From a virus (Duplodnaviria; Heunggongvirae; Uroviricota; Caudoviricetes), in IMG/VR virus record IMGVR_UViG_2529292751_000001, positions 61,735 through 125,734 of that record: DNA of 64,000 nucleotides, one strand, 5' to 3'. The stretch's first letter is position 1, and each line of letters begins with the position of its first letter. Shown here in pieces: positions 807 to 57,744 of this stretch. The notes below the pieces were generated by a model. That model was not told the origin of the DNA. It saw only the letters and a list, made by a program, of their open reading frames with translations, and made no database searches. Made by a program: the position numbers and the translations under genes.

Positions 807-834
807 AAAGGGGAATCTTAATTGATTTCCCTTT
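807..834 (+). other. stem-loop (AAAGGGGAATC/GATTTCCCTTT) directly abutting motif copy 1; no U-tract
   Basis: inverted repeat read from the sequence. Confidence 0.5.
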
Positions 835-852
835 AAACAAAAGTATTGCAGA
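833..852 (+). promoter_or_regulatory. conserved 20-nt element TTAAACAAAAGTATTGCAGA, copy 1
   Basis: exact consensus; followed by GAAGGAG SD. Confidence 0.9.
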
Positions 853-869
853 AGGAGATGTTTTCATAT

Positions 870-1052
870 ATGATGAGAAGGCAGAGACAAAGGAAGCGAA
901 TTAAGAAGCGGTTCTTATTCTTGATTGGGAGCATATCTCTGGCAGTTATATTGCCATTATTGCTATGGCTAATTTTAAAATTACTTGAATTTGCATTTAT
1001 GGCGGTAATCGTCTTAGTCGATATATTAATGTTTATCTACAGATTGTTTTAG
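870..1052 (+). CDS. small hydrophobic membrane protein (~60 aa)
   Basis: ORF track 846..1052, but the TTG start lies inside the motif; ATG at 870 with SD 13 nt upstream preferred; one long hydrophobic stretch. Confidence 0.4.
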   Translation: MMRRQRQRKRIKKRFLFLIGSISLAVILPLLLWLILKLLEFAFMAVIVLVDILMFIYRLF

Positions 1053-1065
1053 GAGGAGATTTACA

Positions 1066-1749
1066 GTGGCAAAACCAAAAGCGAAGAAGCAGGAGAAGCC
1101 AATTAAATGCTATTACTGTGGGAAGATTATTGAACGAAGTAGTGAGCATGTTATTAAAAAAGTCCCATTGGCTACGAAAGCAGGTATCAGAAACTATAAG
1201 AGACAGCTTCATCTGAGCTGTGTCTCAAAATACAATGAGAAGCTTGAAGATACGGATTTAAGGGTGCAGGAGAACTCTGACTGGGATGCTGTATACCAAT
1301 ATTTTAGAGGTAATGTCTTAGGACTGGATTCAACAATCCCATTAGATGACCATACGATTCGTAGATTACAAGGTCTTCGCCTTGGTCAATTCTATCCCTC
1401 TGGGAACAATACCAGACTATTACCACGAGGGTATGATTTTAAAACGATTCTAGTTGCTATGAAAGTGGCTAACATAAAGATTCAACCCTATCTAAAGACA
1501 GCTAGTTTTAAGGACGGAAAACATCGCGTCAACACTATCATGAGATTTGTAACAGATGAAATCAATGATGTGGCAATGCGATTAGAATCACAACGTAAGG
1601 CTGTTGAGAAGCTTGAAAAAGATGAGGTTACAGAAACGTTTGATTACATATCTAAGCTGAAAGAGAAAAAGGAAACAGAAGCAAAACAAGTTGAAGAGAA
1701 AACGGAAACACAAAGTAATATTGAAGCATTATTTGGAGGTTTACTATGA
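1066..1749 (+). CDS. hypothetical Cys-containing protein (227 aa), GTG start
   Basis: ORF track; AGGAGGAG SD; CYYCGK...SCVSKY possible zinc-binding. Confidence 0.5.
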   Translation: MAKPKAKKQEKPIKCYYCGKIIERSSEHVIKKVPLATKAGIRNYKRQLHLSCVSKYNEKLEDTDLRVQENSDWDAVYQYFRGNVLGLDSTIPLDDHTIRRLQGLRLGQFYPSGNNTRLLPRGYDFKTILVAMKVANIKIQPYLKTASFKDGKHRVNTIMRFVTDEINDVAMRLESQRKAVEKLEKDEVTETFDYISKLKEKKETEAKQVEEKTETQSNIEALFGGLL

Positions 1750-3203: not shown

Positions 3204-3223
3204 TTAAACAAAAGTATTGCAGA
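3204..3223 (+). promoter_or_regulatory. conserved 20-nt element, copy 2 (its TTGCAG doubles as a -35)
   Basis: exact consensus immediately after the helicase stop. Confidence 0.9.
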
Positions 3224-7178: not shown

Positions 7179-7198
7179 TTAAACAAAATTATTGCATA
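7179..7198 (+). promoter_or_regulatory. conserved element, variant copy 3 (TTAAACAAAATTATTGCATA)
   Basis: 17/20 to consensus; between the YqeY stop and the ligase SD. Confidence 0.75.
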
Positions 7199-7216: not shown

Positions 7217-8113
7217 TTGGAACAGAAAAAATATCAAGATATTACTAGACTAGGACACAAAACAACTGTAGGCGTATTAAAAGAGGGAGATTACATCGTA
7301 ATTCAAGAGAAGCTAGATGGTGCTAATGCATCATTCCGCAGGGATGGAGATGTAATTCGCGCCTTCTCAAGAAACAAAGAGTTAGACGAGCATAATAACT
7401 TAGGCGGATTCTGGCAATGGACGCAAACTCTAGACGTTACAAAACTTCGTGAAGAGGGTATTTATTTTGGTGAATGGCTAAATCCTCATAAAGTAAAATA
7501 CCCAGAATACGCTAAAACATTCTGGTTGTATGATATTTTCGATACAGAAACTCAACGATACATTAACTTTAAATTAGTAAAGAAAGTTTCTAAACAATTG
7601 GGATTGAACTTAATCCCAGTATTCTACGAAGGCGAATATCAATCGTTTGAACATTTACAATCATTTGTCGGTAAAACTGCTTTAGGAGGAGTTCTTGGAG
7701 ATTCAGAGACTGGTGAAGGCATTGTTGTTAAGAACGTTGACTATGTAGACAGATTTGGGAATCAAAAGTTTGTTAAACTTGTTGCAGATGTATTCCGAGA
7801 AATTCAGTCTCAAAAAGCTCCTAAAGACCCTAAAAAGGCTCTTACTCAAGAACAATCATTTGTTAACCAAGTTGTTACGGAGGCTAGAATCGAGAAGTTC
7901 TTATACAAGTTTGTAGATGAGGGAATCATTGATGAGGAATTTGGAATCGAGGATATGGGAGTAATTCTTAAGAACATGAATACTCGTATCAAGGAAGATA
8001 TCTTGAAAGAAGAGTCTGAGATGCTTCCAGAAGGTTATGATGAAAAACAGTTATCTAAATCAATTGCTAGAGTAGTTGCTCAAAGTGTTAAGAAATTGAT
8101 TATTAACCGTTAA
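7217..8113 (+). CDS. ATP-dependent nucleotidyltransferase ligase, probably Rnl2-type RNA ligase (TTG start)
   Basis: motif I EKLDGANAS (KxDGxN), motif V GEGIVVK, FGEWL and DIFD motifs. Confidence 0.55.
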   Translation: MEQKKYQDITRLGHKTTVGVLKEGDYIVIQEKLDGANASFRRDGDVIRAFSRNKELDEHNNLGGFWQWTQTLDVTKLREEGIYFGEWLNPHKVKYPEYAKTFWLYDIFDTETQRYINFKLVKKVSKQLGLNLIPVFYEGEYQSFEHLQSFVGKTALGGVLGDSETGEGIVVKNVDYVDRFGNQKFVKLVADVFREIQSQKAPKDPKKALTQEQSFVNQVVTEARIEKFLYKFVDEGIIDEEFGIEDMGVILKNMNTRIKEDILKEESEMLPEGYDEKQLSKSIARVVAQSVKKLIINR

Positions 8114-8129
8114 ACAAAAGATTTGCAGA
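8110..8129 (+). promoter_or_regulatory. conserved element, variant copy 4 (TTAAACAAAAGATTTGCAGA)
   Basis: 18/20; immediately after the ligase stop. Confidence 0.8.
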
Positions 8130-9263: not shown

Positions 9264-9472
9264 TGAAGAAGATTTATGTTATCAAGTATACACATATTAT
9301 GACAGGACTAGGAAAAGATGAGGAGAGAACTCATTACTTTGACGAGTCTCAAAAGGCTCAATTTCTATCAAAATATACGATATTAAAAGAGGCTTGGTAT
9401 TGCTTTAATCTAGAAGCTTACAAGGCAGACAGTGTTTCAAAATTAGATGTAGATTCATTATTAGACTTTTAA
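9260..9472 (+). CDS. hypothetical protein (70 aa)
   Basis: ORF track; ATGA overlap with the primase. Confidence 0.4.
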   Translation: MMKKIYVIKYTHIMTGLGKDEERTHYFDESQKAQFLSKYTILKEAWYCFNLEAYKADSVSKLDVDSLLDF

Positions 9473-9488
9473 ACAAAAGTATTGCAGA
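9469..9488 (+). promoter_or_regulatory. conserved element, copy 5
   Basis: exact consensus; followed by AAGAAGGAATAGA-ATG. Confidence 0.9.
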
Positions 9489-10134: not shown

Positions 10135-11405
10135 GATTAACTTATGAACAATTAAATATGATTAAAGAGAAAATGGGAGTAGACATGCTATGGTCATTCT
10201 CAAAAATGAGTACTTATTTGCAATGCTCTTGGCTATATAAGCTTAAGTATATTGACAAGATTAGATTAAAAGGGGATAACTGCTACACGCATTTCGGTAC
10301 GGTATCGCATGATGTTATCCAAGGGTTATATGATGAAGTTCATACATATGAACAGATGATTGACAAGTTTAACGATGAGGTTATCAAATGGCAAATCAAC
10401 GATGACCCTGCACTAAAATTCAATTCTGATAAAGAGCGCGATGGATATATAGAAAACCTTCGCCATTACTTTACCCACACAGAACAGATTCCTTATAAGG
10501 TAGTCAATGAAAAAGCTGTCTTAGCTGTATTTGAGGGTGCTAAGAAATACGTATTCCAAGGTTATATCGATTCCCAGTACACAGATGAAGATGGAATCTT
10601 TTATATTCTCGACTACAAAACTTCTAGTAAAAGCGGATTCACTGGCAAAGACTTGTTGAAAAAGGCTCAGCAGTTAATGATTTATGCAGTCGGTATCAAT
10701 CAGTTCCATAAGATTCCTATTGATAAGATTCGACTTCGTTACGATATGATGAAGTATTGTAATGTATCATTTATGCAGAAGAATGGCAAGATGAAGACGA
10801 CTAAAGCAGAGCGTAGCTTATGGGTTGCTCACATATCTAATCAGTTACGCAAAGACTTTGAGGATGTCGAGAAGAGTATCGAGAAGCATCAAAAGGAAAT
10901 TACAAAGATTGAGAAGAAAATCAAGCAGAAGAAGACTACTCCAGAAATGGCAGAGGAGTATCTGGCTATGATTAAGATTGAGGAAGAGTCTATTAATGAA
11001 CTAGAGAAGTTCGTATTTAATCCTCTTGAGATTAATGAAATGATGGACACAGCTATGAATAACAATACTCTAGAAAACCTACCTCAGTTTATTCAAGACA
11101 AGTATACGGTTGAGAACTGTTATATTGATGTTGAGCTGACAGAGGAGATTGTAGAGGAATTTAAGGCTGAATTAGTTTCTGTATTAGACAAAATTATTGC
11201 AAAGACAGAAGAAGGCAATGCTGATGAAGCATTTGACCGTAGCAGAATCGACAACTCTAATTCCTTCTATTGCAATACTTTATGCGATATGAAGAGTAAA
11301 TGTAAGTTCTATGAGGAATATAAAGAGAATAGCTCTATGTTTATAGAGAAGAAGGTTGACCAACCTAGCGATGAAGAGATAATGGCTATGTTTGGATTGA
11401 GTTAA
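10131..11405 (+). CDS. PD-(D/E)XK nuclease, Cas4/RecB-like, with Fe-S cysteines
   Basis: ILDYKTS motif; one N-terminal Cys plus C-terminal CNTLCDMKSKC cluster; GTG start overlapping the tdk stop. Confidence 0.55.
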   Translation: MRLTYEQLNMIKEKMGVDMLWSFSKMSTYLQCSWLYKLKYIDKIRLKGDNCYTHFGTVSHDVIQGLYDEVHTYEQMIDKFNDEVIKWQINDDPALKFNSDKERDGYIENLRHYFTHTEQIPYKVVNEKAVLAVFEGAKKYVFQGYIDSQYTDEDGIFYILDYKTSSKSGFTGKDLLKKAQQLMIYAVGINQFHKIPIDKIRLRYDMMKYCNVSFMQKNGKMKTTKAERSLWVAHISNQLRKDFEDVEKSIEKHQKEITKIEKKIKQKKTTPEMAEEYLAMIKIEEESINELEKFVFNPLEINEMMDTAMNNNTLENLPQFIQDKYTVENCYIDVELTEEIVEEFKAELVSVLDKIIAKTEEGNADEAFDRSRIDNSNSFYCNTLCDMKSKCKFYEEYKENSSMFIEKKVDQPSDEEIMAMFGLS

Positions 11406-11444: not shown

Positions 11445-11464
11445 TTAAACAAAAGTATTGCAGA
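11445..11464 (+). promoter_or_regulatory. conserved element, copy 6
   Basis: exact consensus. Confidence 0.9.
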
Positions 11465-11516: not shown

Positions 11517-11822
11517 ATGAAACAAGTTATCGATGCAACTAATTGTGTATTATTTATGAAGCCATCAGATATTATTGGAAGCAATGTTACTTATATTGGG
11601 AGCGCAACTACAGAGGTTGAACCTGTACGCGAAAACAAGTTACCAGATATCGATGAAGATTTCATTAACATGTCAGTTAGTGAAGTTATTTTAAAATACA
11701 TAAAACAAAAGTATTGCAAAGAATTCACTTGGGAACAGATTGTATTAGCAACTTATGGAGAAGCTGTTTTAATAGCTCCTTTATATTGGACAGCAATTGA
11801 ATACTTAAAGGAACATAAATAG
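11517..11822 (+). CDS. hypothetical protein (101 aa); contains an internal copy of the conserved element
   Basis: ORF track; GGGGAAATAAAA-ATG. Confidence 0.4.
   Translation: MKQVIDATNCVLFMKPSDIIGSNVTYIGSATTEVEPVRENKLPDIDEDFINMSVSEVILKYIKQKYCKEFTWEQIVLATYGEAVLIAPLYWTAIEYLKEHK
11701..11720 (+). promoter_or_regulatory. conserved element, internal copy 7 (TAAAACAAAAGTATTGCAAA) inside a CDS, 113 nt upstream of the PolIII alpha start
   Basis: 18/20 match, in gene orientation. Confidence 0.7.
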
Positions 11823-11832: not shown

Positions 11833-14800
11833 ATGTACGATACATTAACAGTAGTAGAAAAGACATATACACCGATACACCTACATGACCATCATAGCAA
11901 TATCAATATGGTCGAGGTGGTAACGAAATTTGAACAGTATGTAGAAAGAGCAATTGAACTTGGGCTTCCTACGATTGTATGTACGAATCATGGAGTTCTT
12001 ACAGGTTGGTATAACCGTAAAAAGCTTCTCGAATCGAAAAATATGAAGTACGTTCACGCTGTAGAAGCTTATGTCACTTGGGATTTAGAAAACAAGGCTC
12101 GTGATAATTTCCACTTATCATTATTTGCCAAGAACTTTGAAGGATTCAAGGAGCTGAATAAGCTAGTATCAAACTCATTTAATAGAAGCGACAATCACTT
12201 CTATTACAATCCTCGTATCGCATGGAAAGACATTAAGAATACGAGCGACAACATCTTAGTATCAACTGCATGTTTAGGGAGCTTTATTTGGAAGCTTAAG
12301 GATGATGATGAGAAGTATGCTGAAATCCTACAATGGATTGATAACAATAAGCATCGCGTATTCTTAGAGGTTCAGCCTCATCGACATTTAGAGCAGGCAA
12401 AACTAAATAGACATCTAATTAATTTGGCTAGAAACAACGGATGGAGAATCATTGCAGGCGGTGACGTTCACGCGTTAAACAAAGAGCATGATGAAGCTCG
12501 TAAGATTCTTCAGAAGTCCAAACGAGTTGAATTCGCGGATGAAGATAGCTTTGATTTAACATTAAAGAGCTATGATGAAATCTTCGAACAGTTCCAATCT
12601 CAAGGAGTATTAACAGGCGATGAAATTGCAGAGGCATTAAACAATACAAACGTATTATTAGATATGGTAGAGCCATTTAAGCTTGATTATTCTAAGAAGT
12701 ACCCTAAGTTACATGCTAATCCAGATAGAGTACTTCAAGAGAAGATTGCAGAGGGTATTAAGTTTCGTGGCATTGATAAGATACCTCATCATGAGAAGCT
12801 TATCTACGCACAGAGAATTCAGCATGAATTAGATACTTATAGAGCGAATGAAGCTGAGAATTACCTGCTACTAGAGGATATGGTTAAAACATATGCTAGG
12901 GAAAATGATATAGCATATGGATATGGTCGAGGCTCTGTAAGCGGAAGTATCATCGCATATCTAATGCAAATCACAGAAATGAATTCGATTAAACGAGGTC
13001 TTAACTTCGAGCGATTTATGAATAAAGAACGTATCAGTCTAGCCGATGTTGATTCGGACTACGACCCACAAAAACGTTACATGATTCAAGATTTCTTAAT
13101 GAATCATCCAGAGCTGTACTGCGCTCCAATCATGACATCTAATACAATCGCTATGAAAGGCGCTATCCGAGATATTGGTCGAGGTTTAGGCATGCCACTT
13201 AACGAGGTAGATGACATTGCTAAAGGCGTAGAGGAAGCAGAGCATTACTATCGTGATAGATATCCAGAGCTGTTTAAATATGTTGATATCGTATTGGGAA
13301 CAATCACATCAATTGGACAACATGCATGCGGTATCTGCGTATCTCCAATTCCACTAGATGAGAATATGGGATTAATCACAACTAAAGATTCTCCTTATCC
13401 ATTAACAATGCTTAATATGAAGGAAATCGATGACCAAAACTATGTAAAACTTGATATCTTAGGCTTAGATACTACCTCTGTAATCAGCGAGGTTTGTAGA
13501 TTAGCAGGAATAGACTTTGTAACTCCTCAGAACCTAGATTCGGAAGATGAGAAGGTTTGGAATAGTATCTTAGATAGCAATGTTGGTATTTTCCAGTGGG
13601 AAAGTGACTTCTCGCATCAGATATACAAAGACCTATTCAGCAAAGAAACAATTGCTAAGATTAAAGCGCAAAACCCTAACTTCTCATACATAGACTTATT
13701 CTCATTAGGTAACGCGATTCTGAGACCATCTGGTGCATCGTATCGTGAAAGTGTATGCCGAGGTGAATTCTATGATAATGGGCATCCTGCATTGAATGAA
13801 TTCTTAGCATCAACGCTTGGAAGATTAGTATATCAAGAGCAATTAATGGAGTTTCTGGTGAAATTCTGTGGATACACGATGGGACAGGCTGACTTAGTCA
13901 GACGCGGTATAGGTAAGAAGATTAAGACAATCATAGATACAGAAGTTCCTAAGATTGAAGCGAAATTCATTGAAACAATGACAAGAGACTATGGATTATC
14001 ATATGAAGAGGCAGAGCGAATCGCCAAGCCATTCATGCAGGTATTCTTAGATAGTGCCGATTATGGCTTCTCTGTAAACCACTCAGATGCTTATTCTTGG
14101 ATGGGATATGCCATGGCATGGCTAAGATATTACTATCCTATTGAATTCCTTACAGCATCGTTAAACGTGAACATAGGGAAGGAAGACAAGACTAATAAAC
14201 TAGTTGAATATGCAAAAGAGAAAGGTATTAAGCTAGATAGTATTAAATTCCGCTATTCTCGTGACGGTTATATGTTTAATAAGGAGACAAACTCTATCTA
14301 TCAAGGTATAGAACCTATTAAATTTCTTAACTCTCAAGTGGCAGAAGGATTGTATGAACTGCGTAATAAAGAGTATAAATGTTTTACAGATTTACTTGTT
14401 GACATTAAAGATGGTATGGTGTTACACTGTAACAGTAGCTCACAAGTGATAGATATTAAAGATTTACTTAAGATGTATGAGCCAAAAGAACTACAGAAGA
14501 TGGTTAAAGCAGAAGAAATTGTAACTGTCGGCTCTAATGAGGTTCAAATCAACTCTCGTCAAATGGCAATCTTGATATCTCTGAATTACTTCTCAGAGTT
14601 TGGGCAAAATAAGAAGTTATTACAACTATTTGAGTTCTTCGAGAAGACTTACAAAAAGACTCTCACACTCAAATCTAAAGCAGAGCGTTATGCAAAAGTA
14701 TTGCAGAAAGAACAGGAATTAGAAGATGAGAAGCTTTCATTAGTAGAACAATATGAAAGAGAGCTAGAATTCTTAGGGCATATTGAATCGAAAGATGAGT

Positions 14801-15078: not shown

Positions 15079-15446
15079 TGACTAAGACAACTATCAAAAC
15101 AATCGAGAGCAACGTAACATTTATCCAAAAAGGTGACAAGGTTAAGAAGAATGGAGATATGTTCGTAATCTCATCAATGGGCAAACAGAATCCAAGTAGC
15201 GCTTTTGAAGGAAGAAATATTGTGAGAAACGAGCCAATTAACAGTGCATTATTTGGAAAAGAATCAACGCCAGCGTATGTAACACCAGTGTATGCAAGTC
15301 AAGCAATTGAAGTATATGCATTAGTAAGTATCACTACTGGAGAAAGATATTATCCTAACCCTTGTTCTTTAGAAGAGCTTGTCCATAAGATTTCAAAAGA
15401 TGGCTTTAAAAAAGTAAATGAAGTAGAGATTATTGAAAAATCATAA
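15078..15446 (+). CDS. hypothetical protein (122 aa)
   Basis: ORF track; ATGA overlap with the polymerase. Confidence 0.45.
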   Translation: MTKTTIKTIESNVTFIQKGDKVKKNGDMFVISSMGKQNPSSAFEGRNIVRNEPINSALFGKESTPAYVTPVYASQAIEVYALVSITTGERYYPNPCSLEELVHKISKDGFKKVNEVEIIEKS

Positions 15447-15463
15447 AACAAAAGTATTGCAGG
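15444..15463 (+). promoter_or_regulatory. conserved element, copy 8 (ATAAAACAAAAGTATTGCAG)
   Basis: core 16/16. Confidence 0.85.
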
Positions 15464-19944: not shown

Positions 19945-19964
19945 TTAAACAAAAGTATTGCATA
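19945..19964 (+). promoter_or_regulatory. conserved element, copy 9 (TTAAACAAAAGTATTGCATA)
   Basis: 19/20; followed by GGAGGGAATTT-ATG. Confidence 0.85.
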
Positions 19965-19975: not shown

Positions 19976-22222
19976 ATGACAACAATTAAAGGTATTGCCA
20001 CATTTAAGAGAGCTATATTCTCAAAAGGCGACTTCGTTATCGGAGCATTTGAGCCAGTGTCAATTGAAGAAGGCAAAGTAGAAGTTAACGAGTCGTTTGG
20101 CACTTTCTCGATGAAAGGTGAGATGCCTGCCATGCAGAAAGAAGCTCAATATCACTTTATAGCCGAAGAAGGTCAGAGACATCCTCAGTATGGGATTTCT
20201 TACGACTGTTGCTTTATTAGACAGGATATTAACCTTGAAAGTGGAGATAGCAAAGATATTAGAAGCTTTCTAGAGGTAATCTTAACGAAGAGACAAGTAG
20301 ATTCGCTGTATGAGGTATTTGAGAATCCGTTAGAGGTAATTAAGGAGAATAATCCAGAGAAGCTCACACAAGCAAGCGGAATAGGTTTAAAGACAGCCAA
20401 TCGCATTCTAAAGCATTACGACTCTCAAAAGGATTATACAGTTGCATATGTGGAACTTGGTAAATTTGGAATCACGCCAAACACTATTCGCAAAATCGTT
20501 GGCTTCTATGGCAGTCCAGAATTAGCAGTTCAGAAGATTAATAACAATCCATATGAGCTTATGAAGATTGATGGCTACGGATTTAAGACATGCGATGAGA
20601 TATTCTTTAAAATGGGCGGAGACCCTAATGATAAGATTCGCATTAAGTCATTCCTACTATTTGCATTACAAGAGGAAGCAGGAAGAGGGCATACATGGTC
20701 AGCTCCTTCAGACCTAATTCATACAGCGTTAGAGTTTATCCCAACTGCAGACCAATCATTAATAGGTCGAATCTTAATTGATAATGAAGATGATGAATTC
20801 TATCTAACACCAGATAAAAAACGTATCTCATTAAAGCCATTCCAAATGTTAGAAGAGCTTGTAGCAGGGCAGTTATATCGCGTTCTTACAGCTAATAACA
20901 CATTCGAATACGATGGATGGGAAGATGAAGTTGCTAAAGCCGAAGAAGAGCAAGGTTGGAGATTCACAGACCAACAGAAGGAAGCGATGCAGATGATGCT
21001 AGAGAATAACGTTTCTATCTTGCAAGGTTATGGTGGTACTGGTAAAACGACAAGCTTAAAAGCTGTTGCAGATATCTTAGAAATGGTTGGTTACATTTAT
21101 GCACAATGCGCTTTAAGTGGTAAGGCATCAAATAACTTGGCTCTGGTAACAGGTCGAGAAAGTAGTACTATTCATAGATTACTAGGCTTTGATGTTGGTA
21201 GCGGTGGATTCCACTACAATCACAAAAATCCGTTACCATATGACATTATTATTGTCGATGAGGTGTCTATGGTGGATGCTCGACTATTTGGTCATTTATT
21301 ACTAGCAATTCGCTCTGGTGCAAAACTAATCATGCTAGGGGATAGCCAACAGTTAGAGTCTATTGGTATTCCAGTTATGATGCCGATGCTAGACAGTCAT
21401 ATGATACCTACAATGACATTGACTCAGATTCATAGACAAGCACAAAAATCTGCTGTCGTAACGGATTCTATTGCGATTCGACAAGGTAAGCAGGTTGTGA
21501 AAGAGTCTATAGGGCGCGTAGTCCATGGAGAACTACAGGATTTAGAATATGAGCTAGTAGAATCAGACGATGATATCTTCCTTAATGTTGTGAGAGAGTT
21601 TCATAAACATATTCAAGTAGAAGATATTAAGGACGTTCAAATCCTTTCTCAGACTCGTAATAAGGGCAAAAACTCATGCCTAGCAATCAATAAAGCATGT
21701 CAAAAGATTTATAATCCAGAGTCGGAAGATAAGGATGAAATTCAAGTTGGTAAGGAAGACACTGGCTACGTATTACGACAGGGCGACAAGGTTATCAATA
21801 TCAGAAATAACTATCAAGCTGTTGACGAGCATGATATGAGTTGTCCTGTATTCAATGGTAATATTGGTATTCTAGAAGGTTTCTATACGGATGACGATGG
21901 AGATAACTATATGCTTATCGACTTTGAGGGTATTGGACGATTAAAGATTTACGAAGACAAGTATAGCACAATCGAATTAGCATATTGTATTACCGTACAT
22001 AAGAGCCAAGGTTCTGCTTCTAAGATTATTATCGTAGCATTTCCATATCATTTCTTATTAAATAGTCGCCAATTAATTTATACAGCAATTACTCGTACAC
22101 GAAAACACTGTGTAGTTATTGCCACTAAAAAGACTCTTGTGAAAGCAATTCAGAAAGATGATGTGTCAAATAAGCGCACATACCTTGCCGAATACCTTCA
22201 TAAGCTTGACAATTCTAATTAA
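19976..22222 (+). CDS. RecD-like ATP-dependent DNA helicase
   Basis: HhH GIGLKTANRILKHY; Walker A GYGGTGKTTS; Walker B IIIVDEVSM; C-terminal SH3-like region; ORF track start 19958 trimmed. Confidence 0.75.
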   Translation: MTTIKGIATFKRAIFSKGDFVIGAFEPVSIEEGKVEVNESFGTFSMKGEMPAMQKEAQYHFIAEEGQRHPQYGISYDCCFIRQDINLESGDSKDIRSFLEVILTKRQVDSLYEVFENPLEVIKENNPEKLTQASGIGLKTANRILKHYDSQKDYTVAYVELGKFGITPNTIRKIVGFYGSPELAVQKINNNPYELMKIDGYGFKTCDEIFFKMGGDPNDKIRIKSFLLFALQEEAGRGHTWSAPSDLIHTALEFIPTADQSLIGRILIDNEDDEFYLTPDKKRISLKPFQMLEELVAGQLYRVLTANNTFEYDGWEDEVAKAEEEQGWRFTDQQKEAMQMMLENNVSILQGYGGTGKTTSLKAVADILEMVGYIYAQCALSGKASNNLALVTGRESSTIHRLLGFDVGSGGFHYNHKNPLPYDIIIVDEVSMVDARLFGHLLLAIRSGAKLIMLGDSQQLESIGIPVMMPMLDSHMIPTMTLTQIHRQAQKSAVVTDSIAIRQGKQVVKESIGRVVHGELQDLEYELVESDDDIFLNVVREFHKHIQVEDIKDVQILSQTRNKGKNSCLAINKACQKIYNPESEDKDEIQVGKEDTGYVLRQGDKVINIRNNYQAVDEHDMSCPVFNGNIGILEGFYTDDDGDNYMLIDFEGIGRLKIYEDKYSTIELAYCITVHKSQGSASKIIIVAFPYHFLLNSRQLIYTAITRTRKHCVVIATKKTLVKAIQKDDVSNKRTYLAEYLHKLDNSN

Positions 22223-22238
22223 ACAAAAATATTGCACA
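22219..22238 (+). promoter_or_regulatory. degenerate copy of the conserved element (TTAAACAAAAATATTGCACA), copy 10, just upstream of a -35
   Basis: 18/20. Confidence 0.7.
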
Positions 22239-22316: not shown

Positions 22317-22336
22317 TTAAACAAAAGTATTGCAGA
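22317..22336 (+). promoter_or_regulatory. conserved element, copy 11, in the predicted 5' leader
   Basis: exact consensus; followed by GAGGTGTAAA-ATG. Confidence 0.9.
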
Positions 22337-24839: not shown

Positions 24840-24864
24840 AAGAGGGGTTACTTTTAACCCTCTT
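24840..24864 (+). other. stem-loop (AGAGGGGTTA/TAACCCTCT) abutting motif copy 12
   Basis: inverted repeat; no U-tract. Confidence 0.5.
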
Positions 24865-24882
24865 AAACAAAAGTATTGCAGA
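24863..24882 (+). promoter_or_regulatory. conserved element, copy 12 (between nrdE and nrdF)
   Basis: exact consensus. Confidence 0.9.
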
Positions 24883-27175: not shown

Positions 27176-27181
27176 AAAGTG

Positions 27182-40194: not shown

Positions 40195-40214
40195 TCTGCA
40201 ATACTTTTGTTTAA
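40195..40214 (-). promoter_or_regulatory. conserved element, copy 18 (minus strand), upstream of the amidase
   Basis: exact consensus on the minus strand. Confidence 0.9.
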
Positions 40215-43632: not shown

Positions 43633-43652
43633 TCTGCAAATCTTTTGTTTAA
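43633..43652 (-). promoter_or_regulatory. conserved element, variant copy 19 (TTAAACAAAAGATTTGCAGA, minus strand)
   Basis: 18/20; followed by GAAGGGATGAG-ATG of the 230-aa gene. Confidence 0.8.
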
Positions 43653-43688: not shown

Positions 43689-43717
43689 ATGATATCATAT
43701 TTTGGAGGTCATTGCAA
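43689..43717 (-). promoter_or_regulatory. sigma-A-like promoter on the minus strand (-35 TTGCAA supplied by motif copy 20, 17-nt spacer, TGaTATCAT)
   Basis: hexamers and spacing. Confidence 0.45.
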
Positions 43718-43731
43718 TACTTTTGTTTTAA
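43712..43731 (-). promoter_or_regulatory. conserved element, copy 20 (TTAAAACAAAAGTATTGCAAT, minus strand)
   Basis: core 16/16. Confidence 0.8.
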
Positions 43732-45854: not shown

Positions 45855-46773
45855 ATGTAAACTTTCCTAATTCAGCAGTTGAAATCAAATCATTCTTAAG
45901 CATATTACTAAAGTTTAATTCGCCAATTTCTGTGTAGTCAAAGGTTACTGTTGCTAGGTCTCTTAAAGCGCCTTCCTTATGCTGAGATGAGACGTTTTGT
46001 GTAGCAATTAGAATAAGTACCCCACTATCCATTCGCAATACTTTTGCTTTATGGTTATTTAAGAAATCAAGCCAGTCTTGACGATTGATTTGCTCTGCCA
46101 ATTTGTCAATTCCTCCACCTGCCATAGCAATTGTTTCTTTTGACAATGGTAAGGTTGATAGATTACCGCTTCTGTAATTACTATTGCCAAATGTTACAAT
46201 TGGATATGCACCATTAATAGGCTGGTTTACACTAGATGCTTGGTTATATGTTACATCCCCTAATGAGATATCATATTCAAGTCTCTTATTTTCTTTTCTA
46301 TCCGTTAGGAAAATACCTTCGTACTCCGACTTAATCTGGTCTGATTTAAGCATATCTCCAATAACTTCATTTGCTACTGGGACAATTGCGTACTGGTATG
46401 TAGCCCCATTCTGGACGTATCTATCAACGTAATTGTACACATTGTACTCTTTGTTATAATCAAATTGTGCGACTAAATCCCACTTATTACTTCCATACAC
46501 AGAGCGATACAACTGAATGTGAGTTACTTTAAATCCTTCTGCACCAATAGAGCCTGCATCTAAGTCTCCTGTAAACTTGGAATCCATGATAGTAGTCAGT
46601 GTCCACATGAATGGCTTCGCTGTATCATTCGCGATTTGCGTGTTTAAGTCGATATAGATTTCATCGTATGTACCTTCATTAATATTTAACTCATCCATCA
46701 TATCTGTACACACTGGAGTATCAAATATAGTCCCACCATGTTCATAATTAAAGAAGTTGTATCCAATAATCAC
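45820..46773 (-). CDS. tail structural protein (317 aa)
   Basis: ORF track; module context. Confidence 0.45.
   Translation of the reverse strand: MIIGYNFFNYEHGGTIFDTPVCTDMMDELNINEGTYDEIYIDLNTQIANDTAKPFMWTLTTIMDSKFTGDLDAGSIGAEGFKVTHIQLYRSVYGSNKWDLVAQFDYNKEYNVYNYVDRYVQNGATYQYAIVPVANEVIGDMLKSDQIKSEYEGIFLTDRKENKRLEYDISLGDVTYNQASSVNQPINGAYPIVTFGNSNYRSGNLSTLPLSKETIAMAGGGIDKLAEQINRQDWLDFLNNHKAKVLRMDSGVLILIATQNVSSQHKEGALRDLATVTFDYTEIGELNFSNMLKNDLISTAELGKFTFDDEGEIISAI
46026..46046 (-). promoter_or_regulatory. partial copy of the conserved element (AAAGCAAAAGTATTGCGAATGG) inside a CDS
   Basis: 14-nt core match. Confidence 0.3.
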
Positions 46774-47893: not shown

Positions 47894-47913
47894 TCTGCAA
47901 TACTTTTGTTTTA
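47894..47913 (-). promoter_or_regulatory. conserved element, copy 21 (minus strand)
   Basis: TAAAACAAAAGTATTGCAGA; GAGGGTG SD follows. Confidence 0.85.
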
Positions 47914-53900: not shown

Positions 53901-55476
53901 TACTAAGCTGATTAATATTTCTTACCACAGCTTCATATTCTTTAAGTTTAGAAGTAACTGCATCTTGTTCAGCTTTATGTTTGGCTGTAATTTGGCTACG
54001 TTCCATCTCTTGCTGATTAATCTTGCCTGCTTCAGTTAATTGCTTCTGCATTTCACGAGTAACAAGCTGAACACTTTCAAACATTTGTCTGTTTGCTTGT
54101 TGGTTTCGTTCTGCGAGTACAAGCTGTTCGCGTAATGCTCTTAATTGAGAATTTTCCGCAACACCTAGACCACCCATATTCTTTCTAGTGTCTAGTTCTG
54201 CAATCTTCATCTTTAAGCGATGCACATCTTGAAGGTCTGCTTTCATAACAGCTAGTGCTTCTTTTTGCTCTTGCTTAGTTTTTCTCTCCTCTTCAGTAAG
54301 TCTCTTAGCATCAGCTAACGCTTGCTTCTTAGCTTCCGCCTGTTGAACCTGTAGCATACCAATTGTTCTAAGATTGTCCATCTCATCTTTTTGAGAAGAG
54401 TTCATTTTCTCTTGAAGACTATGTTTTTCTTTAATCTTATTTTGAGCCTTCTCATAATGACCATACAGTTCTTGAAGAGAAGCTTTTTCTTTCTCTGTCG
54501 CATTAACCATTTGTACAGCAAGAGAGTTTTTCTTAGCCTCTAACTGAGCAACTTTTGATACAGCCTGTGCAATTTCATTATTAGCTTGTTTTTCTTGTTG
54601 CTTTAAAGCTAATATAGTTTTTGCCTCTAAAGCCAATTCTTGCTGACGCTTAAGCTCTTTTAGCGAGTTGTTATCAGTAGCATTCTGAGCATATCTTAAT
54701 CTATACTCGTATTGAAGCATCTCCAATTGCTCTTTCTGAATTCCTCTTTCTCTTTCAAGGAGTTGGAAGTGCTTACCTTGAGCATTTACTTGTTCCATTT
54801 CAATCTGATGGATTCTTCTAGTAACACCCTCGATTTCTTTCATCGCTCGCATTTTATCTTCGACAACTTTAACGTCTTGCGTACCATCTGGCTTGTTGGT
54901 CGTTGTTTTAGATACACCAGAGCCAACATTCTCTGTTACAACCTTTGTTTTTAATGTTGTAACACTGCCATCTTGATTTCTAACCTGTCGAGACAAGTTG
55001 CTAATCTTCGTCCATTCTCCTGCTTGCTCTTTTAGCGCCTGCGTTTCTCCCTTAGTCTTAGACTTGAGGCTATCCATAGCATCATTCATTCGCTTAGCAT
55101 CGCTAAGAACTTCTTTTAGAGGAGCATCCAAATCAATGCCTTTAACATCTATTTTCAATTCGCGCTTCTTAGTTAATTCTTGGTCAAGTTGTTTCAATTC
55201 TCTATGAAAAGTATTTATAGCCTTTAAAGCATTGCTAACATCTGTCTTTAACTTAATTTCAAAAGCATCTTCTTTTAACGCTGATTTAATTTTGGCTCTT
55301 ACACTTTTTAGGCTATTGCCATCAATATCGATGTTAATCTTACCTTCGAAACCATTTTTTACTTTCGCCCATTTCTGAGCTAATTGAGCCTGTAGTTCTC
55401 CAACCGTAGGGAATTCGACACCAACTTCAATTCCTATTTTATTCGCCACTAAGCTAACACCTTCCCTTCTTAGCAA
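47944..55476 (-). CDS. tail tape measure protein (2510 aa)
   Basis: size, extensive coiled-coil K/E/Q-rich sequence, position in the tail operon; contains an N/S-rich low-complexity segment (~52250-52400). Confidence 0.85.
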   Translation of the reverse strand: MLRREGVSLVANKIGIEVGVEFPTVGELQAQLAQKWAKVKNGFEGKINIDIDGNSLKSVRAKIKSALKEDAFEIKLKTDVSNALKAINTFHRELKQLDQELTKKRELKIDVKGIDLDAPLKEVLSDAKRMNDAMDSLKSKTKGETQALKEQAGEWTKISNLSRQVRNQDGSVTTLKTKVVTENVGSGVSKTTTNKPDGTQDVKVVEDKMRAMKEIEGVTRRIHQIEMEQVNAQGKHFQLLERERGIQKEQLEMLQYEYRLRYAQNATDNNSLKELKRQQELALEAKTILALKQQEKQANNEIAQAVSKVAQLEAKKNSLAVQMVNATEKEKASLQELYGHYEKAQNKIKEKHSLQEKMNSSQKDEMDNLRTIGMLQVQQAEAKKQALADAKRLTEEERKTKQEQKEALAVMKADLQDVHRLKMKIAELDTRKNMGGLGVAENSQLRALREQLVLAERNQQANRQMFESVQLVTREMQKQLTEAGKINQQEMERSQITAKHKAEQDAVTSKLKEYEAVVRNINQLSRDLAFAGTRERAEIERALSSERAKADAIKTSLSAQNSLVQERMREIHAIEQAQTAQQRLNRLRSEAREKDRMSNDAHGVVDFYSTYANFEQGIRAVLEPMRELDEAFIGVSKVAQASEDDLNRFKDTAFDVGSTLGVTANDYMKAVETWVTSGETFIKAQEKAKVSLIGSFVGNLKPDDMVKYMEVPLLAFRKQGLETNDVINVMNETANNHAIEMDDLGKAYVRSANTAKDTGIDFGYLTGMITGAQEATRKGGERIGTGIKTISMNMTNITSQLTPDTQKKFAWFKQIGVDFKDSNGQMREGSAILGDLVKKWDSLSQEQKGTAKFYLAGKEHAEILGGIIDQWERVEEVSKETNEQFGKGTNGSAYLEHAKQASSLKFKMVELKNAWMELMNNIGNSTGLTGLVDAVTVALQKLADVATNEKFMEALKFTAFAVGIHAMSNGMRQLTDTMKTGASGIMRDLSQVGSYFGTLTGKIGEATRATRLFNKEARVSNVSTVDINNGGSRNVNSGGRNNNSNNNADSNRNNNSTRNAVQSASNAGAVLEGTSSKISAVGKGIGKLLGMIPLVGDALLLLDFVGVPVFDNMGRAYDNLFKSAEKQALEYEQSVKKFESTNFIVNGMIEKTQANLDKLQEKIDKSKQTDKDPNQEGTQAWMEQDEFMKIKDEIEKQGQDLGVDIKVTVNSYEEVQAKLDELKKKKDELAEKSTIEIASQMTGDWEKLKESQQTIAELKGEQEVVKGKMDEINTAMGKLGTSPEDDQKRKMWQATLKTLQGEYDGLGKKINSAGKEYETAQHSINASAEALLKQGKNMKASNLTAEQATAVYPAMISQYRNMRDSSDKLANIQKKVAEGHKLSADEVEALGGELKQYAGIAPEKIAADKNLQKEIQNNIDAKIKEKGTTIKTAEEALIAIGQHINKEQEVQKEIDRSGKQAKDTEKDIGILNGAYKDIPAKVVTSVVAEGLDWVIEKAKSAKSLLDKIRGSGTGAKVDASVSSTPEQGKSSSVASNVSSSQSSSISANGVPVKGVGRSVSGVSKYNSDRDYNSANENATVSESVWRYWGQEMYRGASIEKELKNLTIAINEAKDDQSKLIPLYKQQQALLKKQVSHNEILSYYKDKELDEVLNKLSDYGFWVDTDTNNINNLYHAKDLKGESAQKAEELLNRWKSLYTEIGGLQDTIANLNSNVKGLDDTIEKAKITEELKNLEPTMKRVDAILTKVTNSDAITSRKLGFVGSQDKELALHLNARALNESKQNMSELINEFNRLSTMSVQFKENGSQIQSQLQKVSSAILAQADAVIKYRQAMNDIEISRITEDMNKFNSAIDENNTKIDNVVKNLQDGLLSRTGVGDLYSSNITELDLSRDNRLQQMAIERINLEKEVQEALAGYAKKNVERTEWVANSILDINKQMYNQLLGLEYAYKNGQDLSMSRVSSSVLGDMGDINKIDAGYGTLVAGQLTKYIKEVQKEQSALLKEYERNLASALNPDEKDSLTNKYIIDSMKLQEKYLRANIQGNNEAIEELNRQLQDTSLTDDQVEKIKQQISTYEKDNVGAQNSIKDSIKKRFEFEFSLLSKAVKEYDKASASLDYLTSIVNLLDKNNTTTKGTILGEQLNVEQNKNAEIKKSLNYLNQQLGLYEKGSFEWNLINAQVEQYNKQLNDSNKELLQINKNIMDNSFNNITDKMEKELFGGKTQKAWKQHQELWIEGLEREIALEKMYKRMADLGTSINEDKLALLDKQEKLSKFEMDYLNKQLDIVELQNKINNLNQEKKVQTLKQNEFGQWDWVYEADQKELDKAKEDLEKAKLELQKMEEKAREDYLSQLDKILSNAKDGDYETVKEFENAIKELGDAFESILGDFPQIQSDYVKELVDAYSKYIKGNEDVLSKLPVEDIMKPISNDFNKELKKTFTEISSELGKVFADALLSRLPNTFNAQAVSRSVASSPTQITIDNIEFPNIKTADGIKDAILSLPQIALQKSKNKL

Positions 55477-55489
55477 TACTTTTGTTTAA
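55470..55489 (-). promoter_or_regulatory. conserved element, copy 22 (TTAAACAAAAGTATTGCTAA, minus strand) between the recombinase stop and the TMP start
   Basis: 18/20. Confidence 0.8.
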
Positions 55490-55490
55490 G

Positions 55491-55511: not shown

Positions 55512-56530
55512 TTTTGTTTTCTAACCTGCTTTAGCTTATCACGAATCTCAGCCTTGGATTTAGGCTTAACATAATGTTTTTGAGTCGTGGATACATCGGA
55601 ATGGTTAAGAAATTCTTGAGCCAGTGTTAAATCACCTGTCTCATCAACGATTCTGTTCCCTGCTGTTTTACGAAGACAGTGAGGATGCAAGTCTGGCAAC
55701 CCTAAGATTGTACCAATCTTTCTAACTCTCATATAGATTGAAGTCTGAGACATCTTTCTATATTCTCCATCTTTCTTAACAAGGAAAATCCCATCGCACT
55801 CTAGATTGTCCATTGGTTTTCGTTTTTCTTTCCATTCTTCTAACAACTTAGCAGAACCCTCTTCGAACGCTACTTCTACCATCTTACCGCGCTTCTCTCT
55901 AATATCTAAGAACATCATATTCTCAACATCTAGACTAGACCACGTAAGTTTAGAGATAGCTCCGTTTCGATTTCCACTTTCAATCATGATGTGCCAGATT
56001 AATAGGTCTTGAATATCAAACTTTCTTCCCTTTTCTTTCTGGTAATCTTCATGAAGATGCTTTGTTACAATATCAATCTGCTCTTGAGTTAAGAAATAGT
56101 GATTAATAAGTTTCTCATCATTAGCACCCTTCATTCTATCTAGCTTTCTATCAAATGGGTGAGCCTCGATAATACCGCGCTTCATAGCCCACAAGTAGTA
56201 ACTAGATACAGCAGAAAGCTTTGTGTTAATTACTTTCTTATTATTCCCAAGCGTATCTTGACAGAAGCCAATGTAACCTTCCATAATATCTACAGCGTTT
56301 TCCATATATTCTTCATCATGAATGAAAATATTCTCCCATTCTTCTTCCAAATAAACAAGAAATTGATTGAAGTAATTCTGGTAAACCTTGTATGTTGTTT
56401 CCTTTACATCTTTGTTTTTGATAATGTTAGAACGAAGATATTTTTCATAAGCTTTAACGCTCTTCTTATTAACCTTCTCCAACTTATCTTTTGTAAAATA
56501 ACGTTTATAAACTCTTTTCTGAGCCATCAA
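55499..56530 (-). CDS. tyrosine recombinase / phage-integrase family protein embedded in the tail operon
   Basis: N-terminal SAM-like domain; C-terminal catalytic-type residues: HCLRKT (H-x-x-R), NHSD (His), QKHYV (Tyr). Confidence 0.8.
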   Translation of the reverse strand: MMAQKRVYKRYFTKDKLEKVNKKSVKAYEKYLRSNIIKNKDVKETTYKVYQNYFNQFLVYLEEEWENIFIHDEEYMENAVDIMEGYIGFCQDTLGNNKKVINTKLSAVSSYYLWAMKRGIIEAHPFDRKLDRMKGANDEKLINHYFLTQEQIDIVTKHLHEDYQKEKGRKFDIQDLLIWHIMIESGNRNGAISKLTWSSLDVENMMFLDIREKRGKMVEVAFEEGSAKLLEEWKEKRKPMDNLECDGIFLVKKDGEYRKMSQTSIYMRVRKIGTILGLPDLHPHCLRKTAGNRIVDETGDLTLAQEFLNHSDVSTTQKHYVKPKSKAEIRDKLKQVRKQNREE

Positions 56531-56571
56531 TACACCTCTATTCTTGAGTAGTATGATAGCCTCCTAAATTC

Positions 56572-57075
56572 CTAAAATACCTTTACGTCCCATCCTTCTC
56601 TACGAAGAGCCATTGCTAATTCTTTAGGGATGTCAGCATCTAATTTATGATAAGATTTCTCCATATAATGAGCGCCATCTCTATCCCATAGAGAACCACT
56701 TGTACCTTCTTCAATCCACATTGGAATGTATTCACTAGTATCTTCTGTATATGAAACGTCCGCATGGGCATTCCATCCAACTCCACCAAAAGCACCATTT
56801 CTGTTATACGCATTGATTTTGTCGGTATCCATGATAATTTCAAATGTAGCAAATTTAGTTCCAATCTTTAGATTGTCAATGGTTACACTGTTCATTAGCT
56901 CGAATGTTCTATCATAAGCGTATTCACCTTTAGGCATATACGTATCATAAACATTCTTCTTTACATTCTCCTGCACAACCTTAATGCAGATGTTCGTAAT
57001 CTGATTCTGTATAGTATCTATAATGGAACGTTTTAAATGAGCATGGAGAGCAGAGACGCTATCAAACTTCCGCAC
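56572..57075 (-). CDS. tail-module protein (167 aa), GTG start
   Basis: ORF track; overlaps the upstream gene by 14 nt. Confidence 0.45.
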   Translation of the reverse strand: MRKFDSVSALHAHLKRSIIDTIQNQITNICIKVVQENVKKNVYDTYMPKGEYAYDRTFELMNSVTIDNLKIGTKFATFEIIMDTDKINAYNRNGAFGGVGWNAHADVSYTEDTSEYIPMWIEEGTSGSLWDRDGAHYMEKSYHKLDADIPKELAMALRREGWDVKVF

Positions 57076-57706
57076 CGTCTGCTACCTCATGCTCTGTTTT
57101 CCCAGTTTTTAATTGAATTGTATCTGCTGTTTGAGTAATAGTTGATTCTGCATTTTTTAATTTTTCTTCTCTGCTCAATAATTCTGTTTTAGCGAGATTC
57201 TCAATGTCTTTTGTAGTCTGTTCAATCTTATCTAAGTTTTCTTTTACCTTTGGATTATAATTAGCATGATTTAATAATGCTGAAGGGATAGAATTGATTA
57301 ATTCTGATTGAGCCAAGATGCTATCCGCGCTTATGATTTCAGACTTCATATTTTCAGCATAAAGCTTATTAATCTCTGAGATAATTTGAGCTACTACATT
57401 TTGTGCAATCAACAGATGGACTGAAGGATTATCAATAGTCTTATTAATTTCCTCATCTGACATTCCACTAACATCAATATTCGTTAGTAATGGAAATACA
57501 TCTTTCATCATTGTCATTCCATCAAAGATAATTTTGTCATTTTCTAAGCCCATTCCCTTTGCGTTCTGCAAATCGATGATTGCATTTGCGTCAACTAGAG
57601 TTGGTTCGTAAATTTCAATATTCCCTTGTGGAGCATTAACGTATTCACGAATTTTTCGAACACCCTCTTGAGCTACTTGAAGTGAATCTAATTTAATTTT
57701 TGTCAT
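57062..57706 (-). CDS. tail-module protein (214 aa), possible major tail or chaperone-like protein
   Basis: ORF track; AAGGAGG SD; position upstream of the TMP. Confidence 0.45.
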   Translation of the reverse strand: MTKIKLDSLQVAQEGVRKIREYVNAPQGNIEIYEPTLVDANAIIDLQNAKGMGLENDKIIFDGMTMMKDVFPLLTNIDVSGMSDEEINKTIDNPSVHLLIAQNVVAQIISEINKLYAENMKSEIISADSILAQSELINSIPSALLNHANYNPKVKENLDKIEQTTKDIENLAKTELLSREEKLKNAESTITQTADTIQLKTGKTEHEVADGAEV

Positions 57707-57724
57707 AATTGTGTATCCTCCTTG

Positions 57725-57744
57725 TTTGCAAATCTTTTGCTTAA
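57725..57744 (-). promoter_or_regulatory. conserved element, variant copy 23 (TTAAGCAAAAGATTTGCAAA, minus strand)
   Basis: 16/20; predicted TSS of the adjacent promoter falls at its 5' edge. Confidence 0.7.

Follow-up and report, generated by a model that had tools for sequence, protein, structure and literature searches.

Two phages of Bacillus subtilis, SPbeta and phi3T, provide the closest described systems for the element reported here. In SPbeta, the master repressor MrpR binds a repeat of SPbeta, the element SPBRE, at ten peaks found by ChAP-seq, in which affinity-purified chromatin is sequenced (PMC10516654). SroF of phi3T is a monomer whose integrase fold clamps a 26-bp asymmetric A-tract box at many genomic sites and reads 24 of its 26 bp; more than one repressor from the sro operon has been reported for the SPbeta family (bioRxiv 10.1101/2025.11.27.690993). 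A LexA-controlled antirepressor, Sar, has been described for this family as well. The stoperators of mycobacteriophage L5 and other cluster A phages are likewise asymmetric sites, oriented with transcription and acting as roadblocks (PMC9283540). Here we analyze a 20-nt element, TTAAACAAAAGTATTGCAGA, that recurs through 64,000 nucleotides of an SPbeta-like phage (IMG/VR record IMGVR_UViG_2529292751_000001, positions 61,735 to 125,734; this whole stretch is called the window). We consider it the probable recognition box of the phage's own MrpR/SroF-family master repressor.

Occurrence and conservation of the 20-nt element

On both strands of the 64-kb window, TTAAACAAAAGTATTGCAGA is matched 22 times with up to three mismatches, where shuffled sequences lead one to expect 0.04 matches. 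Its 16-nt core is found 23 times with up to two mismatches (0.17 expected), and a degenerate 17-mer pattern that admits the variant core AAAAGATTTGCA 30 times (1.4 expected). The motif is asymmetric, its information content falls to background at both 20-nt borders, and the box count for the window amounts to 27-30; the variant core is present at 8110, 27157, 28393, 43633, 57725 and 57803. The repeat had been reported in a first-pass annotation of this DNA, and it proved real. The coordinates given at that time were recovered within 1-8 nt (27156 as 27157, 31399 as 31400, 43712 as 43711, 14695 as 14688, 46026 as 46032). A partial copy placed at 19610 was moved to 19593, where the weak match lies within the chance rate, and our search added a degenerate copy at 11184.

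The copies follow the genes. All of those up to 33.6 kb are on the plus strand and all of those from 40.2 kb onward on the minus strand, as are the two gene blocks, so that the co-orientation noticed earlier was confirmed. Of 27 copies, 23 are intergenic according to our own gene prediction, in a window that is only 8% non-coding (binomial P ~1e-21). A position right before the Shine-Dalgarno (SD) sequence, originally ascribed to nearly all copies, applies to about 14 of them, which end 8-26 nt 5' of a start codon; the others lie 39-106 nt away or within genes. In seven copies the stop codon of the upstream gene is a TAA within the motif itself (TTAAAC or TAAAAC; the positions of six are given with the individual copies below), and the element therefore occupies the entire intergenic gap. 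Two regions are free of copies, as had been observed before: 17-19.5 kb and the moron region at 31.5-38.2 kb, with only weak matches at 19593 and 33603 that fall within the chance rate. At gathering score, no Rfam 15 family matches the window, no tRNA genes were found in it, and the motif string had no match in the literature searched.

Proteins identical to those of the window are encoded on ~127-kb contigs of Bacillus cereus-group assemblies (e.g., GCA_050929235.1 and GCA_002556855.1). The gene content is SPbeta-like, and neighboring genes match the Pfam families YomN, YomU, YomV, YomW and YorH. A scan of genome contigs with the exact 16-mer gave, among the matches listed, almost only single chance occurrences. 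Several IMG/VR contigs of 125-132 kb carry it in multiple copies. One relative, A2 (IMGVR_UViG_3300003973_000001), is 87-93% identical to the window; the other 16-mer-bearing phages, although only 65-70% identical in coding DNA, have kept this sequence without change, and the junction between genes at which it stands is often the same. The best match to the window's DnaE among deposited phages, Clostridioides phage pCD1602_4, has no copy of the motif, and its 12-mer repeats reflect tandem repeats in proteins.

The Bacillus wiedmannii plasmid NZ_CP032366 (Bw), of 137.6 kb, is a relative available as a complete circle. It contains 71 copies of TTAAACAAAA(G/T)TATTGAAA (2.7 expected), 70 of them co-oriented with the genes. 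About 23 of the 71 have a -10 at 16-18 bp, nine of these being a perfect TATAAT, at least 20 copies stand directly before an SD and start codon, and pairs 52-90 bp apart are common. Junction arrangements are shared between the two phages: the copy at 8110 of the window corresponds to that at 72245 of Bw, the pair 22219/22317 to 42392/42319, and 24863 to 39737, the last with the same succession of hairpin, motif and SD. Among the Bw copies, TTGACA is found only in promoter copies and TTAAAA only in promoter-less ones, and AAACAAAAKTATT is kept in both. Since the -35 part varies by class around this common core, the core is constrained by something other than sigma. A homologue of the SPbeta polymerase YonO was sought in Bw by tblastn (E <= 0.01) and blastp and was not found; the sole unassigned large open reading frame (ORF) there, of 691 amino acids, is unrelated to it. 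NZ_CP032366 appears to be maintained as a phage-plasmid. It encodes an actin-like ParM/Alp7A segregation protein and a RepA initiator (12210-13340 and 18379-19377 of locus L252), and the ~127-kb phage contigs in draft assemblies would fit an extrachromosomal state. A stretch of ~2.6 kb in the same locus (8516-11121; NZ_CP032366 108.5-111.1 kb) is ORF-free, CA-rich and of low complexity; it may be compared with the 1.7-kb gene-free gap of SPbeta between yonK and yonN that holds the YonO start site.

Every relative examined (A2, Bw and phages B, C and E) encodes a homologue of YopR/MrpR/SroF. The Bw protein (88316-89518) matches the Pfam families MrpR_N_CB with 61.5 bits and MrpR_C_cat with 34.4 bits, both above the cut-off. 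That of A2 (locus L254, 9896-11119) scores 77 bits against MrpR_N_CB and matches, with an E value of 1e-17, the structures determined for YopR/MrpR (chains 8bj6 and 8a0a). Among the motif-sharing phages, the homologues have pairwise identities of 40-57%, and those of phages B, C and E share 23-28% with SPbeta YopR; the public name of the cereus-group proteins is 'phage lytic cycle repressor MrpR family'. As in the sro operon, the gene is preceded by one for a YopP-like integrase; it lies ~10.7 kb upstream of the PQ-loop, 388-amino-acid and AAA_24 genes that precede the window. From this synteny with the left flank, and from the overlap of L254 at 97% identity with L246, the contig that carries the exact window proteins, we infer that the window phage has its MrpR-family gene ~15 kb upstream of the window start. 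The recombinase-family gene within the window (55499-56530), for which the first-pass annotation had envisaged this role, encodes an ordinary Phage_integrase protein in YomM position, adjoining YomN and the tape-measure gene, and is not the MrpR homologue.

The promoter of the MrpR-family gene (TTGCAT-17-TACAAT) has degenerate boxes in its spacer and -10, which are kept between relatives. They are also kept, together with the promoter itself, in an orphan copy of the gene (P0005; 84% identical) on large B. cereus plasmids (L282-L291, e.g., AP022929.1 177-198 kb). This copy lies between insertion sequence elements, away from phage genes, and was rejected as the phage's own MrpR gene because it is a plasmid-borne orphan outside the phage; it might make its carrier immune to phages of this group. 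At 15524-15857 of A2 locus L254, ~10 kb upstream of where the window begins, a motif-bearing promoter (TTGCAA ... TAAGAT) precedes an 81-amino-acid ORF and contains the LexA-type boxes AGAACAAATGTTCT and CGAACAAGCGTTCG. A similar box, AGAACATCTGTTCT, is present at ~83.1 kb in NZ_CP032366, and the window itself has no LexA box above chance. The 81-amino-acid ORF fits a candidate SOS-controlled, Sar-like antirepressor.

Promoter, leader and promoter-less copies

A generic sigma-70 promoter scan of the window gave hits at shuffle level overall, and promoter assignments were therefore restricted to 11/12 matches and to a motif-anchored test with fixed spacing. By these means the copies fall into classes. 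In five of them (3204, 8110, 11445, 30705 and 43711), TTGCAG or TTGCAA of the motif is the -35 hexamer of a predicted sigma-A promoter, 17 bp from a -10 that is TG-extended in four cases and a perfect TATAAT in one; the copy at 833 is a possible sixth. Outside this class, a sigma-A -10 at 16-18 bp was not found. The motif of the promoter-type copies spans -48 to -29, with its A-tract at the position of a proximal upstream (UP) element and TTGNNN as -35. Eight of the nine positions of AAACAAAAG, at -46 to -38, match the proximal UP consensus AAAAAARNR, which is reportedly that of Estrem et al. from 1999. Because these copies sit 5' of the predicted start site and supply the -35, the element appears to act on DNA and not only on RNA. 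The earlier view that the element is not the promoter itself is thus correct for the leader copies, which lie 3' of promoters, and has to be given up for these five, as well as for about one-third of the 71 copies in Bw.

Among the promoter-type copies on the plus strand, the exact copy at 3204..3223 combines TTGCAG (3217-3222), 17 bp and the TG-extended TAGTAT (3240-3245), with the gene starting at 3284. The GATTTGCA variant at 8110..8129 overlaps the stop codon TAA (8111-8113) and combines TTGCAG (8123-8128) over 17 bp with a TG-extended TAAGAT (8146-8151). Lying 3' of an intrinsic terminator (11404-11427), the exact copy at 11445..11464 provides TTGCAG (11458-11463), followed after 17 bp by a TG-extended TAATAT (11481-11486) and by a gene start at 11517. 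At 30705..30724, a copy with one mismatch, TTGCAA (30718-30723) is 17 bp from the perfect TATAAT (30741-30746), and the ATG is at 30751. On the minus strand, the copy at 43711..43730 is the upstream one of two that lie 78 bp apart, and with its TTGCAA (43717-43712) it supplies the -35 of the promoter 43717-43689 (17 bp, TG-extended TATCAT). At two of these promoters a 7-bp inverted repeat encloses the spacer and -10 (3227-3257, GCTGTTA...TAACAGC; 8133-8163, GCTGATA...TATCAGC), an arrangement seen also at ~72245 and ~78448 of Bw; such repeats may provide some of the promoters with an additional operator, bound by a dimeric regulator. In 30741-30753 the TATAAT stands 4 nt 5' of the ATG, with an SD-like AAGAGG within the spacer, and the 30705 promoter would give rise to a leaderless or near-leaderless mRNA.

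Four copies (22317, 27226, 43633 and 57725) form a leader class directly 3' of a separate sigma-A-like promoter, each with a partner copy, often degenerate, 69-98 bp upstream. The copy at 22219..22238 (plus strand), overlapping the stop codon TAA at 22220-22222, lies 5' of the promoter 22245-22274 (TTTACA-18-TATAAT), and its exact partner at 22317..22336 (plus), 98 bp further on in the predicted leader, is followed by an SD and the ATG at 22345. Similarly, the degenerate copy at 27157..27176 (plus; stop codon TAA 27157-27159) precedes the promoter 27182-27210 (TTGACC-17-TATAAT), and the copy at 27226..27245 (plus) begins 15 nt after the -10 and is followed by an SD and the ATG at 27272. The minus-strand partner of 43711, a GATTTGCA variant at 43633..43652, is a leader copy with an SD and a TTG start at 43618. 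Further along the same strand, a variant copy at 57725..57744 begins 4 nt after the -10 of the promoter 57777-57749 (TTGACG-17-TATTAT) and is followed by AAGGAGG and the ATG at 57706; its degenerate upstream partner at 57803..57822 (minus), 78 bp away, lies ~25 bp 5' of the -35.

Two further copies share the order promoter, hairpin at the predicted 5' end, motif and SD. These are the variant at 28393..28412 (plus), with the promoter 28326-28354 (TTGACA-17-TAAAAT), the hairpin 28357-28394 (-20.3 kcal/mol) and the ATG at 28452, and the copy at 47894..47913 (minus), with the promoter 47971-47943 (TTTACA-17-TATAAT), the hairpin 47935-47912 (-15.2 kcal/mol) and the ATG at 47881.

The remaining class comprises eight copies (833, 7179, 9469, 15444, 19945, 24863, 31400 and 55470) that occupy the gap between a stop codon and an SD, without a -10 at any fixed distance. 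Seven of them are on the plus strand. The exact copy at 833..852 is adjoined by the hairpin 807-834 (-14.1 kcal/mol) and directly followed by an AGGAG SD, with the ATG at 870; that at 7179..7198 (two mismatches) precedes an SD and a TTG start at 7217. An exact copy at 9469..9488 overlaps the stop codon TAA (9470-9472) and stands before the thymidine kinase gene (ATG 9502), and the copy at 15444..15463 overlaps TAA 15444-15446, with the ATG at 15476. The one-mismatch copy at 19945..19964 is directly followed by AGGAGG and the ATG at 19976 of a RecD2-like helicase gene. The hairpin 24840-24864 adjoins the exact copy at 24863..24882 in front of nrdF (ATG 24899), and the copy at 31400..31419 (stop codon TAA 31400-31402; ATG 31431) is the last before the moron region. 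On the minus strand, the copy at 55470..55489 (two mismatches) follows the hairpin 55510-55489, whose loop holds the stop codon of the YomM-like gene; no promoter is present, and the motif leads into an SD and the tape-measure gene's start. With about half of all copies lacking a -10, the motif is more than a simple promoter.

An exact copy at 40195..40214 (minus) lies 99 nt upstream of the next gene start (40095) and has no clear -10 or SD after it. Four copies are intragenic. A core-exact one at 11701..11720 (plus) lies within the 101-amino-acid ORF 11517-11822, 112 nt 5' of the dnaE start at 11833, and a partial one with two mismatches at 14688..14707 (plus) is located within dnaE. The degenerate copy at 11184..11203 (plus; three mismatches), within a PD-(D/E)XK nuclease gene, and the partial copy at 46032..46051 (minus), within the gene 45820-46773, are conserved in a relative at the coding level, so that their function is doubtful; both are likely look-alikes rather than functional boxes.

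Hairpins adjoin the 5' end of the copies at 833, 24863, 28393, 47894 and 55470, with energies of -9.8 to -20.3 kcal/mol, in line with the five fused stem-loops recorded initially; only 3.9% of random positions reach -10 kcal/mol. On the antisense strand, a T-rich run comes after each of the hairpins at 55489-55510 and 24845-24860, and a terminator scan lists both as antisense terminator-like. We considered a conditional terminator composed of a hairpin and bound repressor and rejected it on geometry: the active site of the stalled polymerase would be within the hairpin, as judged from the footprints of roadblocks.

The moron region contains, in 36126-38181, a gene for a Rap-type phosphatase (RapH_N, TPR; 36956-38050), followed by a 44-amino-acid ORF (38047-38181) that could encode a Phr peptide. 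At ~36150-36335 lies the gene for a small helix-turn-helix (HTH) protein with weak similarity to YonR.

A repressor box weighed against other readings of the element

The operator or roadblock site of an MrpR-type repressor in an SPbeta-like phage that the first-pass annotation suggested emerges as the best-supported reading, on the strength of the repressor genes of the relatives and of an anatomy shared with the validated SroF and MrpR boxes; the identity of the motif with SPBRE, which it had marked for checking, does not hold, since the SPBRE that we derived from SPbeta is a different sequence. From the ten published SPbeta peak regions we obtained ~ACAAATACAAAWAATATGTATATAA, with ~12 strong copies that are all co-oriented. 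Some of these are whole promoters, one pair surrounds the promoter of yonX, and copies that directly adjoin an SD are found at yopV, yopM and yonX. The core of the phi3T box, GAATAAAAATAAAAT, occurs 39 times in that genome (4.5 expected), 38 of the 39 copies being co-oriented. In phi3T, certain boxes immediately precede a -35 and others an SD within operons, and pairs are 87-89 bp apart; a genome scan found no box in the YonO-transcribed late operon.

In the mechanism that we propose, the repressor would be a catalytically dead integrase-fold monomer that clamps a long asymmetric A-tract site, and the box would be fused to the upstream half of a sigma-A promoter, with AAACAAAAG at the proximal UP site and TTGCAG or TTGCAA as -35. 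In the lysogen, repressor on the promoter copies would mask the -35 and prevent initiation, and the leader copy just before the SD, 70-100 bp farther downstream, would add a further block. The promoter-less copies in tight gaps may serve as elongation roadblocks against read-through, like the mycobacteriophage stoperators, which would account for their strict co-orientation with transcription. In the absence of a detectable YonO from the complete relative, the late genes would be transcribed by the host polymerase. The boxes probably occur in the tail and lysis module because host RNA polymerase must be kept off the late genes directly. This would explain why they reach this module here and not in phi3T or SPbeta. 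Morons expressed in the lysogen carry none. A more far-reaching version of this scheme holds that the promoter-less copies are true stoperators, with an MrpR/SroF clamp convergent with L5 silencing the whole late region and the 20-mer read alternately by RNA polymerase and repressor; we regard this version as possible and advance it tentatively.

Several observations weigh against a repressor box. The 20-mer, SPBRE and the phi3T box are no more similar to one another as position matrices than column-permuted controls, with A-richness controlled, and the phi3T box and SPBRE likewise show no significant matrix similarity. The resemblance of AAACAAAATTATTG to AAATAAAATTACTG of phi3T SroF is striking by eye, and it too was not significant against column-permuted controls. 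The link to these systems therefore comes from architecture and a homologous protein, not from operator homology. In SPbeta, the 16-mer of the window has one exact match (11256-11271), outside the published MrpR-peak regions, which we took as chance. The MrpR-family gene was read only in a relative that is 87-97% identical to the window phage, and the hairpins at five copies fall outside the model. The box is almost invariant although the MrpR homologues are only 40-57% identical, a combination that a conserved partner, such as the alpha and sigma subunits of host RNA polymerase or another phage protein, explains more easily. In addition, the difference between TTGCA and TTGAA boxes is discordant with the MrpR tree (A2 and Bw are 46% identical, more than A2 and phage B with 42%), and no clean pattern of covariation was obtained. 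A roadblock function of MrpR/SroF proteins, finally, is put forward here by analogy.

The strongest competitor takes up the argument of a conserved partner. The motif would be only the UP element and -35 of phage sigma-A promoters, read by the C-terminal domain of host alpha and by sigma region 4 with no phage regulator involved, and copies without a -10 would be decayed promoters, polymerase-recruiting half-sites or leftovers of duplicated cassettes. The near-invariance of the box in the face of diverged MrpR proteins suits such a host partner, as do the fit of AAACAAAAG to the UP consensus, the quality of TTGAAA, TTGACA and TTGCAA as -35 hexamers, and the -10 found at 16-18 bp from about one-third of the copies. 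Yet the half of the copies that have no -10 at a fixed distance are kept at the same junctions in diverged phages, constraint on the C at -43 and on the GTA/TTA is much tighter than UP elements show, and phages A-D retain the poorer TTGCA rather than TTGACA. Promoter-less copies moreover tolerate TTAAAA while the rest of the box is kept, and the equivalent multi-copy element of phi3T is a proven repressor box (bioRxiv 10.1101/2025.11.27.690993). We therefore consider a purely host-read promoter element unlikely.

A function in the mRNA would agree with the strict co-orientation with genes and with the 14 copies that end shortly before a start codon. The motif might then be an unstructured, A-rich leader 5' of the SD that enhances translation or keeps ribosomes on standby, or it might be cut by an endoribonuclease such as RNase Y, whose reported preferences its G in an A/U-rich stretch resembles. 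Cleavage would turn the hairpins, which are enriched on the 5' side (5-6 of 24 copies, compared with 4% of random positions), into protective 3' ends and give the downstream cistrons new 5' ends. Against such a function, the promoter-type copies lie upstream of the predicted start and thus outside the transcript of that promoter, the distance from motif to SD can be anything between 0 and 8 nt or more, Rfam yields no match, and the invariant 16-nt core far exceeds what a standby site or RNase Y needs. In phi3T and SPbeta, moreover, it is boxes in the DNA, the sites of SroF and MrpR, that display this anatomy (PMC10516654). We hold an mRNA element to be improbable as a general explanation; leader copies may have a role at the RNA level.

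About equally improbable is that another phage protein binds the box, be it a second sro-type repressor (an analogue of SroE/YopQ, or one of the small proteins encoded beside MrpR), a protein of the HTH type or an activator overlapping the -35. The discordance between box variant and MrpR tree would find an explanation in this way, the cereus-group operon has two small ORFs at the place of YopQ, and the SPbeta family is reported to have more than one sro-operon repressor (bioRxiv 10.1101/2025.11.27.690993). In SPbeta and phi3T, however, the multi-copy asymmetric box is the site of MrpR or SroF; an activator has no role at promoter-less sites, and a small dimeric HTH protein would be a poorer fit to an asymmetric site of 16-20 bp than the monomeric clamp.

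The motif might also be a promoter used by an RNA polymerase or sigma factor of the phage, be it YonO-type, AR9-like (AACA-N6-TW, which the string fits) or sigma-54-like (-24/-12, which its spacing with TTGCA resembles); a long, asymmetric, conserved sequence directly 5' of genes in all lytic modules would agree with this. We rejected all three versions as highly improbable, since no YonO homologue was detected in the complete relative and SPbeta YonO uses a single start site (PMC5467207), one-third of the copies clearly serve as the -35 of a sigma-A promoter with a proper -10, and the layout is at odds with the SDs, in or past which a sigma-54-type start would land.

If the element is indeed the MrpR/SroF box, it would constitute the operator set for a repressor of this type in the B. 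cereus group, whose large SPbeta-like phages and phage-plasmids encode MrpR proteins so far named by homology alone. It would suggest how a 130-kb temperate phage without an RNA polymerase of its own silences ~20 host-type promoters. The strict co-orientation of the promoter-less sites, seen in the window and by our scans in phi3T and SPbeta, raises the question of whether monomeric integrase-fold repressors stop elongation besides initiation. For annotation, the 20-mer marks boundaries of transcription units and flags relatives in metagenomes.

Comparison with described systems

Most likely, the window element is a new example of the MrpR/SroF box system described in the B. subtilis phages SPbeta and phi3T. 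With the SroF boxes of phi3T it shares a homologous repressor family and a long asymmetric A-tract-rich box in dozens of co-oriented copies, at promoters and before SDs and with pairs ~70-100 bp apart. The two differ in that the phi3T box stops where the -35 starts, whereas that of the window includes the -35, and in that the window boxes continue through the tail and lysis genes; binding is proven in phi3T and would apply to the window box by homology. SPBRE, too, is a multi-copy asymmetric element before lytic genes under an integrase-fold master repressor (PMC10516654), with co-oriented, promoter-flanking and SD-abutting copies as listed above. It covers the spacer and -10 and has ~12 copies in 134 kb, whereas the window 20-mer covers the UP/-35 region and has 27 copies in 64 kb.

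Promoter-type copies occupy the same position as the UP element and -35 of sigma-A/sigma-70 promoters, from which the motif as a whole differs by the many copies without a -10 and by its stricter, more phage-specific conservation. In cluster K mycobacteriophages, short asymmetric multi-copy motifs, the start-associated sequences (SAS), stand immediately 5' of start codons and are co-oriented with the genes. SAS include the SD and are thought to act in translation, whereas the window motif has a separate SD and a third of its copies are promoter elements.

For the promoter-less copies, the cluster A stoperators of L5 gp71 and TipsytheTRex appear to be the best functional model: a monomeric repressor with more than 20 asymmetric sites, located at promoters and in short intergenic gaps and oriented with transcription (PMC9283540). 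Their repressor combines an HTH with a Stoperator domain and reads a 13-bp GC-rich site in another host, and the orientation-dependent block of elongation that is demonstrated there is hypothesized for the window boxes. The candidate repressor of the window phage has an unrelated integrase fold, and its boxes are thus an analogy to the stoperators and not members of that group.

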